30,824 bases of DNA, taken from Cyanobacteriota bacterium. GTDB lineage: Bacteria; Cyanobacteriota; Cyanobacteriia; PCC-6307; Cyanobiaceae. The notes below the pieces were generated by a model that worked only from the letters and a program-made list of their open reading frames with translations, did not search any database and was not told the origin of the DNA. Shown piece by piece: positions 8,620-16,227 of this stretch. The DNA is taken from contig JBEDHF010000004.1 in the NCBI GenBank assembly GCA_041174245.1, positions 1 through 30,824 on the forward strand, in the 5' to 3' direction. Numbering within the stretch: position 1 is the first letter of the stretch; every line of letters starts with the position of its first letter. Made by a program: the position numbers and the translations under genes.

Positions 8620-8985
8620 CTATGCCCAATGAAAAAGCACAATGACCTCAAAGGCGAGAACAGCGCACCAGGCCAAGATAGCAACAGCAACGGCAGCCGC
8701 TGCCATGTCCTTGATGCCGCCGATCACCTCAGAATGGCCAGACTCAATAACATCGCATAAGGATTCAATCACGGTATTGAAGATCTCGGCCATCAACACG
8801 AGAGCCGTGACCACCACCAAGAGGTCCACATGGATCCATTGGTGCTGCACCAGGGCGACGATGAGCAGTGGCACCGAAAGAGCAACCTTGTAAGCAACCG
8901 CAAAATCGGTGACAATCGCACGTTTCAGCCCTAGCAACGCCACCCTAGCCTTCAGGAATGGATCAAACCGCTTCGTCCTGATCAT
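8620..8985 (-). CDS. dgkA: Prokaryotic diacylglycerol kinase (DgkA family)
   Basis: LVLMAEIFNTVIESLCD...IGGIKDMAAAAVAVA is the E-xx-NT-xxE...KD-xxx-AV signature. Three TM helices. ATG 8985 gives 121 aa, the typical length. Confidence 0.88.
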   Translation of the reverse strand: MIRTKRFDPFLKARVALLGLKRAIVTDFAVAYKVALSVPLLIVALVQHQWIHVDLLVVVTALVLMAEIFNTVIESLCDVIESGHSEVIGGIKDMAAAAVAVAILAWCAVLAFEVIVLFHWA

Positions 8986-9814
8986 GGGCGAAACGATGGT
9001 AGAGAAAGTCGAGGGCCTGGTTACGAAGCTCGTAATAGCGAGGATCCTCCATGATGTCCTCACGATTACGAGGACGGGAAAAATCAACCTCGAGAATCTC
9101 ACCGATCGAAGCAGATGGACCATTGGTCATCATCACGATTCGATCGGCAAGAAACAGGGCTTCATCGATATCATGGGTGATCATCAGAACCGTACACTTC
9201 TGGGTATTCCAGATCTGCAGCAGCTCCTCCTGAAGCTCCTCTTTGGTGATCGCATCGAGAGCGCCAAAGGGTTCATCCAGAATCAGCACCTCCGGACGAA
9301 TCGCCAAAGCACGGGCGATGGCCACCCGCTGCTTCATGCCACCAGAGAGTTGGGTAATGAGCTTGTCAGCCGCTGCCGTGAGGCCAACAAGTTCCAGGTG
9401 CTCCATCGCGATCTCACGCTTCTCGCGCTCGCTCAACTGTGGCTTGACAGAATCAATAGCCAGGTGAACATTGTCATAAGCGGACAGCCAGGGGAGCAGG
9501 GCATAGCCCTGAAACACAACCATCCGATCGGGACCCGGCCTCAGAATCGGTTGGCCGTGAAGCAACACGTCACCCGATGTCGGCTTCGCGAAACCCGACA
9601 CCATATTCAGAAGCGTGCTCTTGCCACAACCGGAATGACCGATCACACAAATGAATTCTCCTGTTTGAACCTCAAGATTAATACCCTCAAGGACAGGATA
9701 CGGACCTGAGGGAGTCGCATAGGCCATCCCGAGTTGATTGAAACGCAATAACGGTTGAGATTCGGGAGCACGGTGAGTTTGATCGCCAGGAGCGTGGGTG
9801 GAAAGAAGATTCAT
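8963..9814 (-). CDS. cmpD: Bicarbonate ABC transporter BCT1 ATP-binding subunit CmpD
   Basis: GHSGCGKST, LSGGMKQRVAIARAL, LDEPFGALD and THDIDEA motifs. It is the last ABC gene of the cmp operon. Start moved to ATG 9814 (MNLLSTH). Confidence 0.88.
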   Translation of the reverse strand: MNLLSTHAPGDQTHRAPESQPLLRFNQLGMAYATPSGPYPVLEGINLEVQTGEFICVIGHSGCGKSTLLNMVSGFAKPTSGDVLLHGQPILRPGPDRMVVFQGYALLPWLSAYDNVHLAIDSVKPQLSEREKREIAMEHLELVGLTAAADKLITQLSGGMKQRVAIARALAIRPEVLILDEPFGALDAITKEELQEELLQIWNTQKCTVLMITHDIDEALFLADRIVMMTNGPSASIGEILEVDFSRPRNREDIMEDPRYYELRNQALDFLYHRFAHDQDEAV

Positions 9815-9927
9815 CGTTTCAGTGAGGGGAGTTGACAAGGGTGTGAGGTCATCAATAGGATGAAAAGGTCTGAGACAGACATCAGCAGCGGGCGCTCCAT
9901 CCAGAGAACACCGCCAGAGAACTGGCG

Positions 9928-11931
9928 TCAAGTGATGAGCGCTCGAGCCGGAGGCATGGCGATTTCGGCAATACTGAAATCCTGATGGATGGAGAGTTCA
10001 TTGAGGTAACGAATCGGATCGTCACTGTTAAAGGGTCGTCCATCAAACAGTTCAATAGGACCACGCTGATAGCTGATGTCCTCGAATCCGAGTTCGCGAA
10101 CTGCGGTGCTGAACACACTGACATTGCAGATCCGCTCAAGAATCTCGACGTAATTCCGAGGGAAGGGAATCTCAGCCCAACGGGCCAGCTGGGTCAGAAT
10201 CCAAAGGTGCTCAGAACGGCTGGGACGATTAATCCCGGGACCAAAGAACTGGTGATGGGGTAAAGCATGGGGATTCCCTTGCACTGCGCGCTCACTCCCA
10301 GATCCGGCCCCGAAGCTGATCATCTCCTTCTTCATGCCCAGATAGCGGCGATCAGAGAGGAGTTCAGCCATCTCCTCCCAATGGGAAGGATCAGCGCAGA
10401 ACTGACAGGCCTCAAGCAAAGCCTTGGTGAGAGCGATGTGGGTGTTCGGATAGGCCAGGGCCCAGTCTTCACGCACGCCGAGCACCTTGCCGGGATGGCC
10501 ATTCCAGATTTCCAGATCACCGACAATCGAAACACCATGGCCATCCAGGCTGGCGCGAAGATTCCAGGGTTCACCGATGCAGTAACCATCGATCGAACCG
10601 TCCTTGAGGTCGGCCAGCATCTGCGCCGGAGGGATGGTCTGCAGGTGAACATCCTTGTCCGGGTCGATACCACTTGCGGCCAGCCAGTAACGCAGGAGCA
10701 AGTTGTGCATCGACGCAGGATGGACGATGCCGAGGGTGTGAGGTTCGCGGTCATGGCTCTGAAGCCAACCGCGGTACTCCTCAATGGAGTGCACACCCTG
10801 ATCGGCCAACCGTCTGGCGAGGGTGACCTGATTGCCATTGCGACTGATCGTCAACGCTGAAACAATTGGCGTTGGATCACCGCCATGCCCGCCCGCCGTC
10901 ATCCAGGCGGGCATACCGGAGGGCATCAGCGCCGCATCGAGGGTGCCGTCGAGGAAGCCATCGGTGACCCCTCGCCAGCTGGTTTCACGCACGAGCTGCA
11001 CGGAATCCAGGCCATGGCGAGCAAACAGCCCTTTGGCTTCAGCGATGGCCAGCGGGGCACAGGCCGCCAGGGGAACGAAGCCAAGATCAAGGTTCACCTT
11101 TTCCAGACCATGACGAGCCAGCACCTTGTGGGGCTTGGCCTGCCATTGCTTCACCCGCTTCTGGCGGTTAAGGAAGTAGATGATCTCAGAACGAAGGCTG
11201 TAGTAGCTGGGGTGATGCACCACCTCCAGGCGCTGACGGGGCCGGGGAATATCGACCTCAAGAATGCCACCGATCCTGGAGCCGGGACCATTGGTGAGCA
11301 TCACGATGCGATCAGAGAGGAGCACAGCCTCATCAACATCGTGGGTGACCATCACGGCCGTGAGCTGATGCTCATTGCAGATCTGCATCAGCTTTTCCTG
11401 CAAATTGCCCCGGGTAAGGGCATCAAGCGCTCCAAACGGCTCATCGAGAAGGAGCAGTTTCGGCTTGATCGCCAGGGCACGGGCGATGGCGACGCGCTGC
11501 CGCATGCCTCCCGAGAGCTGCAAGGGCGGCTTATCGGCGGCATGGGCAAGACCGACCATGGCGATGTGCTCATCAACCACAGCGTCGCGCTCAACCCGGG
11601 AAAGATCAGGTAGGACTTCGTCCACAGCCAGACCAATGTTCTCGCGCACCGTCAGCCAAGGCAGCAGCGAGTAGTTCTGGAACACCACCATCTTGTCAGG
11701 ACCAGGGCGACGGATTGTTTCACCGTCCAACAGCACGGTGCCATCGCTGGGAAGGTCCAGTCCTGCCAACATGTTGAGCAAGGTGCTCTTGCCACAACCT
11801 GAGTGGCCAATCAGCGAAATGAATTCACCCTTGCGAATCTCAAGATCAATTCCCTTGAGAGCGAGGTAAGTGCCGCCTGTCGTCAGAGAAAATGTCTTGG
11901 CAACATCCTGAACAGCAACGAGGGAGGTCAT
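9928..11931 (-). CDS. cmpC: BCT1 ATP-binding/regulatory subunit CmpC (ABC domain plus C-terminal NrtA/CmpA-like domain)
   Basis: N-terminal ABC domain, then ARHGLEKVNLDLGFVPL...RETSWRG...HPASMHNLLLRYWLAA. 667 aa, closely resembling the S. elongatus CmpC sequence as recalled. Confidence 0.92.
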   Translation of the reverse strand: MTSLVAVQDVAKTFSLTTGGTYLALKGIDLEIRKGEFISLIGHSGCGKSTLLNMLAGLDLPSDGTVLLDGETIRRPGPDKMVVFQNYSLLPWLTVRENIGLAVDEVLPDLSRVERDAVVDEHIAMVGLAHAADKPPLQLSGGMRQRVAIARALAIKPKLLLLDEPFGALDALTRGNLQEKLMQICNEHQLTAVMVTHDVDEAVLLSDRIVMLTNGPGSRIGGILEVDIPRPRQRLEVVHHPSYYSLRSEIIYFLNRQKRVKQWQAKPHKVLARHGLEKVNLDLGFVPLAACAPLAIAEAKGLFARHGLDSVQLVRETSWRGVTDGFLDGTLDAALMPSGMPAWMTAGGHGGDPTPIVSALTISRNGNQVTLARRLADQGVHSIEEYRGWLQSHDREPHTLGIVHPASMHNLLLRYWLAASGIDPDKDVHLQTIPPAQMLADLKDGSIDGYCIGEPWNLRASLDGHGVSIVGDLEIWNGHPGKVLGVREDWALAYPNTHIALTKALLEACQFCADPSHWEEMAELLSDRRYLGMKKEMISFGAGSGSERAVQGNPHALPHHQFFGPGINRPSRSEHLWILTQLARWAEIPFPRNYVEILERICNVSVFSTAVRELGFEDISYQRGPIELFDGRPFNSDDPIRYLNELSIHQDFSIAEIAMPPARALIT

Positions 11932-11961
11932 CGAAGAAAAAAGCAGAGGAACAACACCGAG

Positions 11962-12132
11962 TCAAGAGGCGCGATTAGCCAGCCAGAAGAACAGGAACAT
12001 CGCCACCATGAACAAGTAACGACCGACAAGAAAACGAATCACATTGAGACGACGACTGAAGAATGCCTCGATGGAAGCACCGATCACCTGATAGATCGCC
12101 AAAACATTCCGCAAGGGGCCTTGAGCGATCAT
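11962..12132 (-). CDS. 56-aa hydrophobic ORF MIAQGPLRNVLAIYQVIGASIEAFFSRRLNVIRFLVGRYLFMVAMFLFFWLANRAS inside the cmp operon (not in the ORF track)
   Basis: Translated manually. The ATG begins 2 nt after the cmpB TGA, the stop is at 11962-11964, and the ORF fills the 203-nt cmpB-cmpC gap on the operon strand. Confidence 0.6.
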   Translation of the reverse strand: MIAQGPLRNVLAIYQVIGASIEAFFSRRLNVIRFLVGRYLFMVAMFLFFWLANRAS

Positions 12133-12134
12133 GA

Positions 12135-12995
12135 TCAACGTCCCGAAGCAATGCGGGCCTGCAGCCAGGTCATCAGTCGATCAAGAATCAGACCAATGGC
12201 ACCGATCCAGATCACACCAAGAACGATGTCCGAGACATAGCTGTTCTGGTAGGCATCCCAGATGAAGAAACCAATGCCGGGGGTGCCGGGCATCACGATT
12301 TCAGCCGCGATGATCGCCAGCCAGGCCAGGCCGATGGAGATGCGCAGGCCGGTAAAGATGTAAGGCAGAGCAGAAGGGATCAGAACTTTAGTGAAGAAGC
12401 GACGATTGGACATCTGCAACACCAATGCGACGTTCCGGTAGTCCTGGGGAATCTGGCGCACACCTTCTGCTGTATTGATCAGAATCGGCCAGATGGAGGT
12501 GATAAAGATCACAAAAATTGCAGCCGGTTGATTGTTCTGGAACAGCACCAGGGCAATCGGCACCCATGCCAGCGGAGCAACCATCCGCAGGAACTGGAAA
12601 AGAGGATCAAAAGCCCTGTTCAACCCTTTGTTCAGACCAACTGCAACGCCAACAGCGATGCCGACGACAGCAGCCAGGGAATAACCGAGGGCGACTCGAC
12701 TGAGACTGCTCATGGCGTGAAGGAACAGCCCCTTGTCAAGACCGCCGCGGTCAAAGAAGGGATAGAACAGCAGGTCGCGCGTGCGCTCTTCGGTGAACAA
12801 GCTCAGCGGACCAGCAAGTTTCGTCAGGCCAAGACTGGCGCTGAGCTGCCAGAAGAGCAGAAAACCAGCAATGCCCAGAATCGGGGGCACAATCGTTTTG
12901 CGAGAGTTTTTCCACCAAAGAGCCAGGCCGGTCGGAGCCAGGCGCTGGTCGGACTTGGCGCTTGAGTTCGTGCTTGGGATGGTGCTATTGGTCAT
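12135..12995 (-). CDS. cmpB: BCT1 permease CmpB
   Basis: NrtB/CmpB-type permease with PLAWVPIAL, IWPILINTAEGV and LPYIFTGLRI. The C-terminal IGFFIWDAYQ motif is CmpB-like. Confidence 0.9.
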   Translation of the reverse strand: MTNSTIPSTNSSAKSDQRLAPTGLALWWKNSRKTIVPPILGIAGFLLFWQLSASLGLTKLAGPLSLFTEERTRDLLFYPFFDRGGLDKGLFLHAMSSLSRVALGYSLAAVVGIAVGVAVGLNKGLNRAFDPLFQFLRMVAPLAWVPIALVLFQNNQPAAIFVIFITSIWPILINTAEGVRQIPQDYRNVALVLQMSNRRFFTKVLIPSALPYIFTGLRISIGLAWLAIIAAEIVMPGTPGIGFFIWDAYQNSYVSDIVLGVIWIGAIGLILDRLMTWLQARIASGR

Positions 12996-13108: not shown

Positions 13109-14449
13109 TCATTTCTTGATCGTCAGGGAATTGAGATAAGCCTGAGGATTTTCAGGGTCATAAACAACGCCGTCAAAGAAGATTTCCTTGCCTCGGCTGG
13201 AGCCGTTGGGAATCTCCTGGGCAGGCACACCAACCGCCTGGGCAGCCTGGCGCCAAAGGTCTTCGCGCACCGAGCGCTCATTGATCGCTTTCACCTGATC
13301 GATCGTGTCAACCGTGCCCGGGAAGAACTTCCAGCGGATGGATTCCAGCAGGAACCATTGCGTCAGGCTCTTGTAGGGGTAGGAAATGACACCGCGATCG
13401 CTGCTCCAATAGAGCGGAGCCATGGATGGATTGGTTTGAGGAGTGCCGGCGGCACCGATCTTGTACTGCCCTTTCAGGGCTTCCTGGAGCACCGGCAGAG
13501 GCACGTTGTACCACTTGCGGGAGCTGAGAATCCTGGCGGCTTTGTCCTTATTTTCGGGCTTGTCGAGCCAACGCTGGGCTTCAATCAGGCCCTTGAGCAA
13601 GGCAACGGTGGCCTTCGGATTCCGGTTCACCCAATCGGAACGAATGGCGAGGTATTCCTCAGGATGAACCTTCCAGATCTGGGCGGTGGTGGCCGCCAGA
13701 TAACCAACCTTGTCTGTGGCAATCCGCGATGGCCAGGGATCACCCGTGGAAAAGGCTTCCATCGTGCCATTCTTCATGCCCTGAAGGGTTTCAGGGGCAG
13801 GAACCTTGAGCAATTCCACCGCCTTGTCGGGATTCACCCCATTGGCGGCCAGCCAGTAGCGGATCCAGATCTCCTGGTTGGCCTTCGGGAAGGTGTAAGC
13901 GGCACGGAACCGGCGGCCCTCTTTCTTGTTGAAGGCGTCAAAGAATCCAGGCGAGCTCTGGCGGAGATTGAGGCTCAGATTGGCTGGTCGGACGCTGTTG
14001 GCAGCTGCGATGCCATTCCCCTGACTCATCAGCATCGCCAGAATCGACATCGGCACTTTCTTGCCATTCGTGATCGCACCCTCGCCGATCATCTGGGGCA
14101 TCGGCAGCTGCCACTGGCCGCCATCGATACCACCACCAGCAGAGCCGAGGACGACGTTGTCGCGCGCGGCTCCCCAGCTGGCCTGCTTGAACAGCTTCAC
14201 ATCCAGACCATGGCGGGCAAAAAAGCCTTGCTCAACCCCAATCACCAGGGGCGCCGCTTCCAGGATCGGAATGTATCCGAGGCTGATGGTGTTGGTTTCC
14301 AAGCTCGGATCAACAACCAGCGCCGTAGCCGAGCCAGAACCACTGCCATTGCCGCTGCGATCCGGTGGGTTGCCAAGACATCCGGCCAAGACAACGGAGA
14401 GCGCGAGTGCACTGCCGCAAAGGGATCGAAAACGTCGACGACGTGTCAT
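13109..14449 (-). CDS. cmpA: BCT1 bicarbonate-binding lipoprotein CmpA
   Basis: Lipobox LAGC. The motifs LGYIPILEAAP, GIDGGQWQLPMP, FSTGDPWP and HPEEYLA match CmpA rather than NrtA (GAHILTPMP, HPEK). Start set at ATG 14449; the track gives 14473. Confidence 0.92.
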   Translation of the reverse strand: MTRRRRFRSLCGSALALSVVLAGCLGNPPDRSGNGSGSGSATALVVDPSLETNTISLGYIPILEAAPLVIGVEQGFFARHGLDVKLFKQASWGAARDNVVLGSAGGGIDGGQWQLPMPQMIGEGAITNGKKVPMSILAMLMSQGNGIAAANSVRPANLSLNLRQSSPGFFDAFNKKEGRRFRAAYTFPKANQEIWIRYWLAANGVNPDKAVELLKVPAPETLQGMKNGTMEAFSTGDPWPSRIATDKVGYLAATTAQIWKVHPEEYLAIRSDWVNRNPKATVALLKGLIEAQRWLDKPENKDKAARILSSRKWYNVPLPVLQEALKGQYKIGAAGTPQTNPSMAPLYWSSDRGVISYPYKSLTQWFLLESIRWKFFPGTVDTIDQVKAINERSVREDLWRQAAQAVGVPAQEIPNGSSRGKEIFFDGVVYDPENPQAYLNSLTIKK

Positions 14450-15348
14450 CAGAAAACAATCGATTGGGAACAAAAAATGACATCAGGATCGAACCAGTCC
14501 AATGCAGCGAACAGCAGCACCCAAAGGCGGGCAGTGCAGCGGCCAGGGGCAGAACAAATCCCTGAAATGGAAGCAAAATTAGGATCAATCCAGATACCGA
14601 GGCGATCAAAAGCAACGGCCAGAGATGACCTCAGTCATGCGAGGAAGTCGTTGCAGAACAATCCGATCAAACCGCACCAGAGCGCGAGCCGATGGATTCA
14701 TTCAGCAACCTGAAGCCGCAACTTGATTCGGGCGATCATCAGCAGCAGCCATGATCCACCAGTCGAACCCATTCAATTCCAGGCATCCATCCCTACCAAC
14801 CGCATCAGCGGTAGGCCTGGTAAGACTTGAGGAACGCATGGATCAAGCCGCGATCCAAGCGGATAGCGAACGCCACAGCGAAGCTGTGGCGCCGCCTGGA
14901 ACATCAGCCAATGAGGCGACGGAGAGCGACAAAAGCCTATTCAGGTCTGCAATAACAGCTCTGAATCAATCCGGCATCGAAAGATGCCAAGGGAATGGAA
15001 GCCGGAACGGAACACCAGAACTCCGGCTTCCAATCAACTCCGCGGGAGTTCACCGCTGCCGCCACGGCTGTGGCGACGACGCTGACCTCTTCGGCAGCGC
15101 CGGGAGCCACATCGCTGCCGCTGAGCGCTTTGGTGGGTGGATGACATCGTTCAGGGACTGGCGAAGAACGAGTGATCGACTTGCGATGGAGAAAGAGTAA
15201 GGAGGATCGACAGATGTTGGGTCACGATCCACCGCAGGATCGGCAATCCAGTCGATAAGCACTCTTAATCATCAACAGGATTCAGCCACGACCCAAGGTG
15301 CAGACTCTGGTTCTATGGTCCACGCGCCAGGACACCCTGCTGCAGACG

Positions 15349-16227
15349 ATGCCGTTCTCCAGCCCTTTGGAGCGCTATCGCGGTCGACGGTTGTGCCTCT
15401 CCAGTCAGCACCGCAAAGAGCAAGCCCTCGCCAGGCCCTTTCGGGCCGGACTGGGGATGATCCTGGTGACACCAGCCGGCCTCGATACGGACCGCTTCGG
15501 CAGTTTCTGCGGTGCACAGCCACGGCTGACGGATGCCCAACAAAGCTGCCGCCAGAAGACTGAAGCCGGCATGGAGCTGAGCGGACTGACGCTCGGACTT
15601 GGCAGCGAAGGCAGTTTCGGCCCCCATCCAGCCCTGCCGTGGCTGGCGGCCGGCAGCGAATGGCTGACGTTCATGGATCGCGAGGCTGCGCTGGTGATTG
15701 AGGAATCACGAATCAGTGCCAGGACCAATTTCAGTCATCTCGAAACGAAACCGGGTGCCGCCATCGACAGCTGGCTGCACCAGATCGGCTTCCCATCCCA
15801 TGCCGTGCTCGTCCGCCCCCAGCAACCCCCAGGCCTGAGCAGCGCAGCACCGGTGGCCAAGGGCATCCAACGCAGGGATCTCCTCGATCGGGCCATCCGC
15901 GACGCGGCCACACGATCGGCTGATGGCATGGCGCTGCTCGAAACCGACATGAGGGCCCACGTCAATCCCACCCGGATGCGGGCGATCCGGCAGCTCGGCA
16001 TTCAGCTCGTGCGTCGTCTTCGCCGCCCATGCCCTGCCTGTGGAGCCCCAGGCTGGGGGCTGATCGAGCGGCTGCCCGGATTGCCTTGCCGCTGGTGCGG
16101 CCAACCGACGGAACGGGTGGCCCTGGAGATCTTCGGTTGCGCCGCCTGTGACCACCAGCAGGAGCGTCCCCGCCCCGATGGTCTCCTGGCCGCCGATCCT
16201 GAGCACTGCCTGACCTGCAATCCCTGA
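15349..16227 (+). CDS. DUF6671-like protein with a C-terminal multi-Cys (four CxxC) putative Zn-binding region
   Basis: Motifs HRKEQAL, DTDRFGSF, GSEGSFGPHP, GFPSH and DMRAHVNPTRM, then CPAC, CRWC, CAAC and CLTC. Start at ATG 15349; the track gives 15298. Confidence 0.8.
   Translation: MPFSSPLERYRGRRLCLSSQHRKEQALARPFRAGLGMILVTPAGLDTDRFGSFCGAQPRLTDAQQSCRQKTEAGMELSGLTLGLGSEGSFGPHPALPWLAAGSEWLTFMDREAALVIEESRISARTNFSHLETKPGAAIDSWLHQIGFPSHAVLVRPQQPPGLSSAAPVAKGIQRRDLLDRAIRDAATRSADGMALLETDMRAHVNPTRMRAIRQLGIQLVRRLRRPCPACGAPGWGLIERLPGLPCRWCGQPTERVALEIFGCAACDHQQERPRPDGLLAADPEHCLTCNP

Follow-up and report, generated by a model that had tools for sequence, protein, structure and literature searches.

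The window, by which we mean the whole stretch of 30,824 nucleotides of Cyanobiaceae DNA analysed here, carries on its minus strand an operon for BCT1, which takes up bicarbonate with high affinity for the cyanobacterial CO2-concentrating mechanism and has become a candidate for chloroplast engineering. The genes follow the order A-B-C-D, with an NrtB-type permease, an ATPase fused to a regulatory domain, and a second ATPase (Table 1). Judged by similarity to proteins of known structure, the operon is cmpABCD and not nrtABCD. The substrate-binding protein scores 514.7 bits against CmpA (2i48) versus 382.8 bits against NrtA (2g29), and CmpC scores 1036 bits against the PDB chain of CmpC (9ua0_C) versus 803 bits against NrtC (8wm7_C). 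Orthologues of the permease recovered in a search of the organism's own family are 72-90% identical to it. The cmpD frame listed in Table 1 overlaps the cmpC stop by 4 nt (window positions 9928-9931); its true start probably lies about 40 codons further in, because homologous CmpD proteins are about 280-285 residues long.

Table 1. Genes of the cmp operon in the window (positions on the forward strand; listed in the order of transcription)
Feature	Position	Strand	Description
cmpA	13109..14473	-	Substrate-binding protein; longest ORF, start unrefined; PF13379
cmpB	12135..12995	-	Permease, NrtB/CmpB family; 286 aa, TGA stop; PF00528; TIGR01183, 317 bits
small ORF	11962..12132	-	56 codons plus TGA, between cmpB and cmpC
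cmpC	9928..11931	-	ATPase fused to NrtA-like C-terminal regulatory domain; 667 aa, ATG at 11931
cmpD	8963..9931	-	Second ATPase; longest ORF, from TTG; PF00005; TIGR01184, 403 bits

A gene of the DUF6671 family (window positions 15349-16227, plus strand) adjoins cmpA in divergent orientation. The same kind of gene precedes cmpA in two metagenomic cmp loci that are unrelated and whose other neighbours differ (L070:926-1984 and L073:902-1780, both minus strand), and may be conserved alongside the operon. Two more NrtB-like permease genes, 52-53% identical to CmpB, are found on other contigs of the same genome (G000:C153:9632-10399 and G000:C92:1417-2184). These paralogous transporters appear to do without the small ORF, of which a search with the single peptide found no second copy in the genome.

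The spacer between cmpB and cmpC measures 203 nt and is nearly all taken up by this small ORF. Its ATG (12132..12130) stands 2 nt past the cmpB stop, and the cmpC start follows 30 nt after its TGA (11964..11962), exactly as a sequence-only reading of the window had described. An alternative in-frame TTG at 12138 overlaps the cmpB stop; the ATG is the start preferred by homologues. The same reading called the ORF hidden and unannotated, which overstates the case: the exact peptide is already present as a called gene in a protein collection, and RefSeq annotates homologues as 'hypothetical protein' (e.g., WP_233133760.1 and WP_254948963.1). A literature search found no paper on the family to which they belong.

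Comparison among relatives leaves little doubt about the nature of this frame. Across the 14 syntenic copies checked from the same family, it is the only one free of stops in all. Six phylogenetically independent pairs of copies gave a pN/pS of 0.36 (nd 117, sd 104; binomial p = 8e-14), and their differences were distributed 64/43/114 over the three codon positions (p = 1.4e-8), an excess at the third. Alternative frames either gave ratios near or above 1 or contained stops, and the antisense frame that shares the wobble position is interrupted by stops in most copies. Pairwise dN/dS ranged from 0.10 to 0.58 at dS values of 0.4-1.4. Frame conservation and a dN/dS below 1 in orthologous spacers, which the sequence-only reading had put forward as the check on its proposal, are therefore both observed. 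The small ORF is a real protein-coding gene under purifying selection. As to its expression, one freshwater metatranscriptome library yielded two contigs (depths 2.3 and 4.6) that span window positions 11877-12176 and so take in the ORF together with both junctions. These contigs could be DNA carry-over; they are a weak hint of expression and silent on translation. Other RNA runs, having no cover over the same interval, are uninformative on expression.

The encoded protein combines a basic segment, FSRRLNVIRF, with a hydrophobic stretch that follows it, both of which had been pointed out from the sequence. The best 19-residue Kyte-Doolittle window covers residues 34-52 (mean 1.99). With an alignment of 50 sequences, AlphaFold2 predicts a single helix over residues 7-55, at pLDDT 87-96 in the C-terminal half. 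Charge is distributed very unevenly along the family's members, with a mean of 5.0 Lys and Arg residues on the N-terminal side versus 0.16 in the C-terminal tail, and an invariant Arg is followed by 15-20 uncharged residues (median run 19) that reach to the end of the protein. Leu35 and Arg38 are invariant in the 50-member alignment and Met45 and Phe49 nearly so; an acidic residue at position 22 is common (Glu22 in the window copy), and the basic segment takes the form RR..N.IR. The N-terminal half evolves fast; the transmembrane pattern is kept even in copies that share only about 18-47% identity with the window protein. A further proposed feature, an amphipathic N-terminal helix, holds up in part: the hydrophobic moment of the window copy (muH 0.42) is equalled by 47% of its own shuffles, but a modest amphipathic signal is present across the family.

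From these features the protein is predicted to be tail-anchored with its N-terminus inside, and to consist of a cytoplasmic helix at about residues 1-33, a transmembrane segment at about residues 34-53 and, in the window protein, a tail of three residues. By prediction, it is thus under 60 residues long and crosses the membrane once, as small membrane accessory subunits do. Since practically none of it is predicted to be periplasmic, contact with the periplasmic CmpA is unlikely. The candidate partners, on this modelled topology, are CmpB within the membrane and the ATPase or regulatory domains in the cytoplasm.

Profile searches of Pfam, NCBIfam and PDB with 50 members of the family returned chance-level matches only, and the best hit in a feature search of the ESM Atlas (0.83) fell in the noise range. 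An origin by duplication of the first transmembrane helix of CmpB was also considered and dropped, as profile-profile comparison with CmpB gave nothing (probability 0.1%). We discarded the IMG label 'predicted Na+-dependent transporter', attached to homologues of 52-57 aa (P0081-P0084, in the cluster of P0013), which looks like an annotation artefact. The long, M23-peptidase-like sequences P0086 and P0087, placed in the same 90% cluster, are unrelated and look like an artefact of clustering.

The small gene keeps close company with cmpB and cmpC wherever it is found. Our sample of the organism's own family comprised 201 genomes, which were searched with CmpB; 38 contain an orthologue at 72% identity or more, and 16 of these have a homologous ORF of 42-63 aa in the cmpB-cmpC slot. 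Among 33 loci examined in this family, 15 carry an ORF of 49-57 aa in the spacer with the common pattern ..E..L.R..N(V/A)I(R/T)FL..R.LLM..M...F, and in the remaining 18 the spacer is 25-121 nt long and lacks such a frame. Searched against all 201 genomes, a profile of the family gave 16 strong matches, one per genome and each directly downstream of the cmpB orthologue, and no strong match away from cmpB. Four weak matches elsewhere in these genomes (E 3.6e-4 to 1.6e-3) lie inside or overlap longer frames and were set aside as chance.

A second sample consisted of the 80 named loci nearest in CmpB, found with CmpB as the query and limited to one per species, of which 79 could be scored. An ORF homologous to the small one, within the same 42-63 aa range, is present in 60 of these 79 loci from Cyanobium, Synechococcus and Aphanothece. 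Carriers include Cyanobium sp. FGCU52, FGCU6, Cruz CV13-4-11 and N.Huapi 1H5, Synechococcus sp. BO 8801, CS-1332 and CCY 0621, and Aphanothece cf. minutissima CCALA 015; Vulcanococcus limneticus LL, Synechococcus sp. GreenBA-s and Aphanothece stagnina RSMan2012 are among those without it. Several metagenome-assembled genomes with picocyanobacterial cmp operons, whose CmpB is 77-91% identical to that of the window (L096, L098, L137, L140 and L144), bear the titles Bordetella parapertussis, Bifidobacterium breve, Rhizobium sp. Q54 or Chitinophaga pinensis; given the operons on their contigs, these titles are evidently mislabelled.

Beyond the family, the gene disappears from view. In 360 genomes from other cyanobacterial families, at least 177 of which carry a CmpB-like gene, the profile had no match at E <= 0.001. 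Likewise, 24 cmp loci from other families contain no related ORF; their cmpB-cmpC spacers measure 8-305 nt or hold another gene, and one locus, in a 2.7-Mb single-contig genome, has a spacer of 28 nt only. Against 1.84 billion representative proteins, profile A1 matched 47 clusters at E <= 1e-3, all of 33-95 aa; a word-index search with the single peptide retrieved its own cluster only. All five of the readable contexts of the profile matches are cmpA-cmpB-x-cmpC-cmpD or a fragment of that order. P0082, P0090 and P0050, all of them divergent, come from complete A-B-x-C-D operons whose flanking genes differ, and the binding proteins of these three operons are CmpA-like (513-519 bits to 2i48 versus 372-380 to NrtA). 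Two others, P0045 and P0036, were found on short contigs, where a long gene follows immediately downstream. Among the genomes searched, then, the small gene occurs only between cmpB and cmpC in operons of the CmpA (bicarbonate) type. A single family (Cyanobiaceae/'Prochlorococcaceae') accounts for all the copies found, and there it is present in about 40-75% of cmp operons depending on the sample.

Within the slot, short gaps (median 13 nt on one side and 19 nt on the other) separate homologues from their flanking genes; sometimes they shrink to 4-6 nt or the genes overlap, as in the ATGA of L030. It follows that the small gene shares the transcript of the operon, and its translation is probably coupled to that of its neighbours.

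The history of the gene within the family has been uneven. In a tree of CmpB and CmpC, lineages that branch early in the family's cmp clade have the ORF; a large derived clade lacks it, as do some smaller clades, a pattern that requires four or five gains or losses. A published analysis traces the acquisition of cmp by this family to a beta-cyanobacterial source (PMC9477826), and the simplest history for the small gene would be a single origin after that acquisition, followed by several losses. In close relatives of carriers the ORF is cleanly absent and not decayed. Natural variants also occur: a truncated relic that ends before the transmembrane helix (L152:627-797), a decayed remnant with stops (L134:2149-2315), and a short form of 42-44 aa in which the transmembrane part is kept and most of the N-terminal helix is gone (L110:2069-2223). 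Four to five changes on the tree imply that the gene is dispensable, and its clean loss in close relatives, together with its decay in L152 and L134, indicates that BCT1 works without the small protein. No alignment column of CmpB or of CmpC residues 1-260 tracked the presence of the ORF (at >=85% versus <=25%), a comparison of low power given only about five independent changes.

These observations set bounds on what had been proposed from the sequence, namely that the peptide is a fifth component or accessory subunit of BCT1. As a general component it can be set aside, in view of the searches of 360 genomes of other families and of 24 of their cmp loci, in which it was not found, and of its repeated gain or loss. 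The related suggestion, that it might matter for the difficulty of expressing BCT1 in heterologous hosts, has weak grounds. That difficulty concerns beta-cyanobacterial BCT1, and because no such ORF was found there, the small protein cannot explain the behaviour of the model beta-cyanobacterial transporters. Further, the inactivity of heterologous BCT1 has been accounted for by auto-inhibition through the CmpC regulatory domain (CRD), which nitrate relieves (PMC13287603). The CmpBCD structures reported in 2026 were obtained with Pseudanabaena proteins expressed in E. coli (PMC13287603). The CmpC of the window has kept both Arg315, the lock residue, and Lys482, which binds nitrate (Lys481 in the solved chain), so the CRD mechanism probably operates here as well (PMC13287603). 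The accessory part of the proposal fares better. An open frame under purifying selection that occupies an exclusive slot in the cmp operon is most economically read as having an accessory or regulatory role with BCT1.

Other readings of the locus have to be weighed against this one. That the spacer is non-coding and the frame open by accident, or that the ORF is the shadow of a conserved RNA element, might seem an obvious objection, since one 57-codon open frame in a 203-nt spacer is not improbable alone (about 0.065 per frame, by our own estimate) and a single genome carries no statistics. With a lone open frame no rarity by chance, it is the conservation established later, among relatives, that carries the argument. 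About 74 copies, their synonymous divergence near saturation, keep the frame open; it shows the excess of third-position changes, and each of the other five frames has stops or ratios of 1 or more; we consider chance, or an RNA element, extremely improbable. An effect mainly in cis is somewhat easier to entertain, and still quite improbable in our judgement. The ORF would then couple or throttle the flow of ribosomes from cmpB to cmpC and cmpD, for example to secure a 2:1:1 ratio of subunits, and the peptide would be a by-product constrained just enough to be harmless. The nearness of its start and stop to the neighbouring stop and start, with gaps often of 4-6 nt and an overlap in L030, would suit such a device, as would the short spacer, of 25-83 nt, found instead in operons that lack the ORF. 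However, a purely cis-acting ORF should keep no protein motif, and this one displays amino-acid constraint at the pN/pS given above, the invariant Leu35 and Arg38, a conserved acidic residue, and a transmembrane pattern that persists at very low sequence identity.

A third idea is that the product is a real membrane protein co-expressed with cmp at low inorganic carbon and directed at another target, which might be the membrane as a whole or a different complex, whether of carbon uptake or of the membrane, with the operon shared for regulation only. The evidence for coding and for membrane insertion is equally compatible with this idea, no residue of CmpB or CmpC covaries with the presence of the ORF, and repeated loss with no visible compensation fits a function loosely connected to the pump. 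Yet the ORF was never found apart from cmpB and cmpC in 201 genomes of the family and 401 of the class, it always lies between the membrane and ATPase genes and not at the end of the operon, and its tight spacing suggests co-translation with the complex. We therefore think a separate target unlikely, if less so than an effect in cis.

Taken together, exclusive synteny, tight coupling and predicted topology make it most likely that the small protein serves freshwater picocyanobacteria as an optional accessory subunit of their BCT1, and we think this reading probably correct. That it binds BCT1 we infer from strict synteny. As such a subunit, a small inner-membrane protein of about 50-57 aa would be made together with the bicarbonate transporter. 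Its basic helix of about 33 residues, with one conserved acidic residue, would lie in the cytoplasm, and the invariant Arg would mark the membrane face. A hydrophobic helix of 15-20 residues would follow the Arg, leaving almost no periplasmic tail. The transmembrane helix would pack against the CmpB dimer, and the cytoplasmic helix would sit near the coupling helices or the ATPase and regulatory domains of CmpC and CmpD. From this position the protein would stabilise, assemble or tune BCT1, in the manner of KdpF or CydX. A complex prediction for the CmpB dimer with the small protein, run without controls, scored 0.00, with a pLDDT below 50 for the partner, and carries no weight on either side of the binding question.

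We speculate further, and more tentatively, that in freshwater alpha-picocyanobacteria the protein might be a genuine fifth subunit of BCT1, a version we would not bet on at even odds. Its transmembrane helix would rest on CmpB and its basic helix on the ATPase or regulatory domains of CmpC and CmpD, altering the stability of the pump or its nitrate-gated auto-inhibition. If this were so, the protein would to our knowledge be without precedent as a small-protein subunit of a type I ABC importer, and transfers of a Cyanobium-type BCT1 to other hosts would do well to include it.

What is new here is the five-gene BCT1 operon and its small-protein family. Many freshwater picocyanobacteria possess such an operon, in which the extra gene encodes a conserved, uncharacterised and predicted tail-anchored small protein. 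Its repeated natural loss provides ready comparisons between sister strains with and without the gene.

Small membrane proteins that serve larger complexes are well represented in bacteria. A 2025 review describes KdpF, CydX, AcrZ and MgtS as partners that stabilise or modulate transporters or oxidases, and does not mention ABC transporters (PMC12648545). Profile searches of Pfam, NCBIfam and PDB revealed no sequence relation between our family and those of KdpF, AcrZ, CydX or MgtS, so any likeness is functional and architectural only. The nearest analogue in genetic setting is KdpF, a single-pass protein of 29 aa encoded inside the operon of its own transporter, the KdpFABC potassium pump (PMC12648545). 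KdpF is dispensable in vivo, yet stabilises its complex (PMC12648545). It differs in being encoded first in the operon and in having a P-type ATPase complex as its partner, whereas the small cmp protein is longer, has a predicted cytoplasmic helix of about 33 residues, is encoded within an ABC importer operon between the genes for permease and ATPase, and is presumed to bind that importer. CydX and CioY (34-37 aa), which are required for or help the stability of cytochrome bd-type oxidases (PMC12648545), are likewise small transmembrane proteins recognised by conserved synteny with their complex. CydX, however, partners an oxidase and is widespread, while the small cmp protein is restricted to a single cyanobacterial family, in which repeated losses have occurred.

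AcrZ (49 aa) and MgtS/MgtR (30-31 aa) are small, single-pass proteins with the N-terminus inside that bind a transporter and tune its specificity or turnover (PMC12648545). Binding is known for these and presumed for the protein described here. Unlike the small cmp ORF, which is embedded in the operon of its presumed target, they are encoded away from their targets and are under stress regulation of their own. In the genomes searched, the small gene is encoded with, and only with, the genes of its presumed partner complex, as expected of an accessory subunit. The remaining comparison is with the regulatory domain of BCT1 itself. The CRD exerts post-translational control at the cytoplasmic face of the transporter as a fused domain present in all CmpC; the small protein is the product of a separate, lineage-specific gene and has no similarity to it. 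Should the small protein bind the pump, it would add a further layer of control or stabilisation beside the CRD and extend regulation by small proteins to ABC importers.
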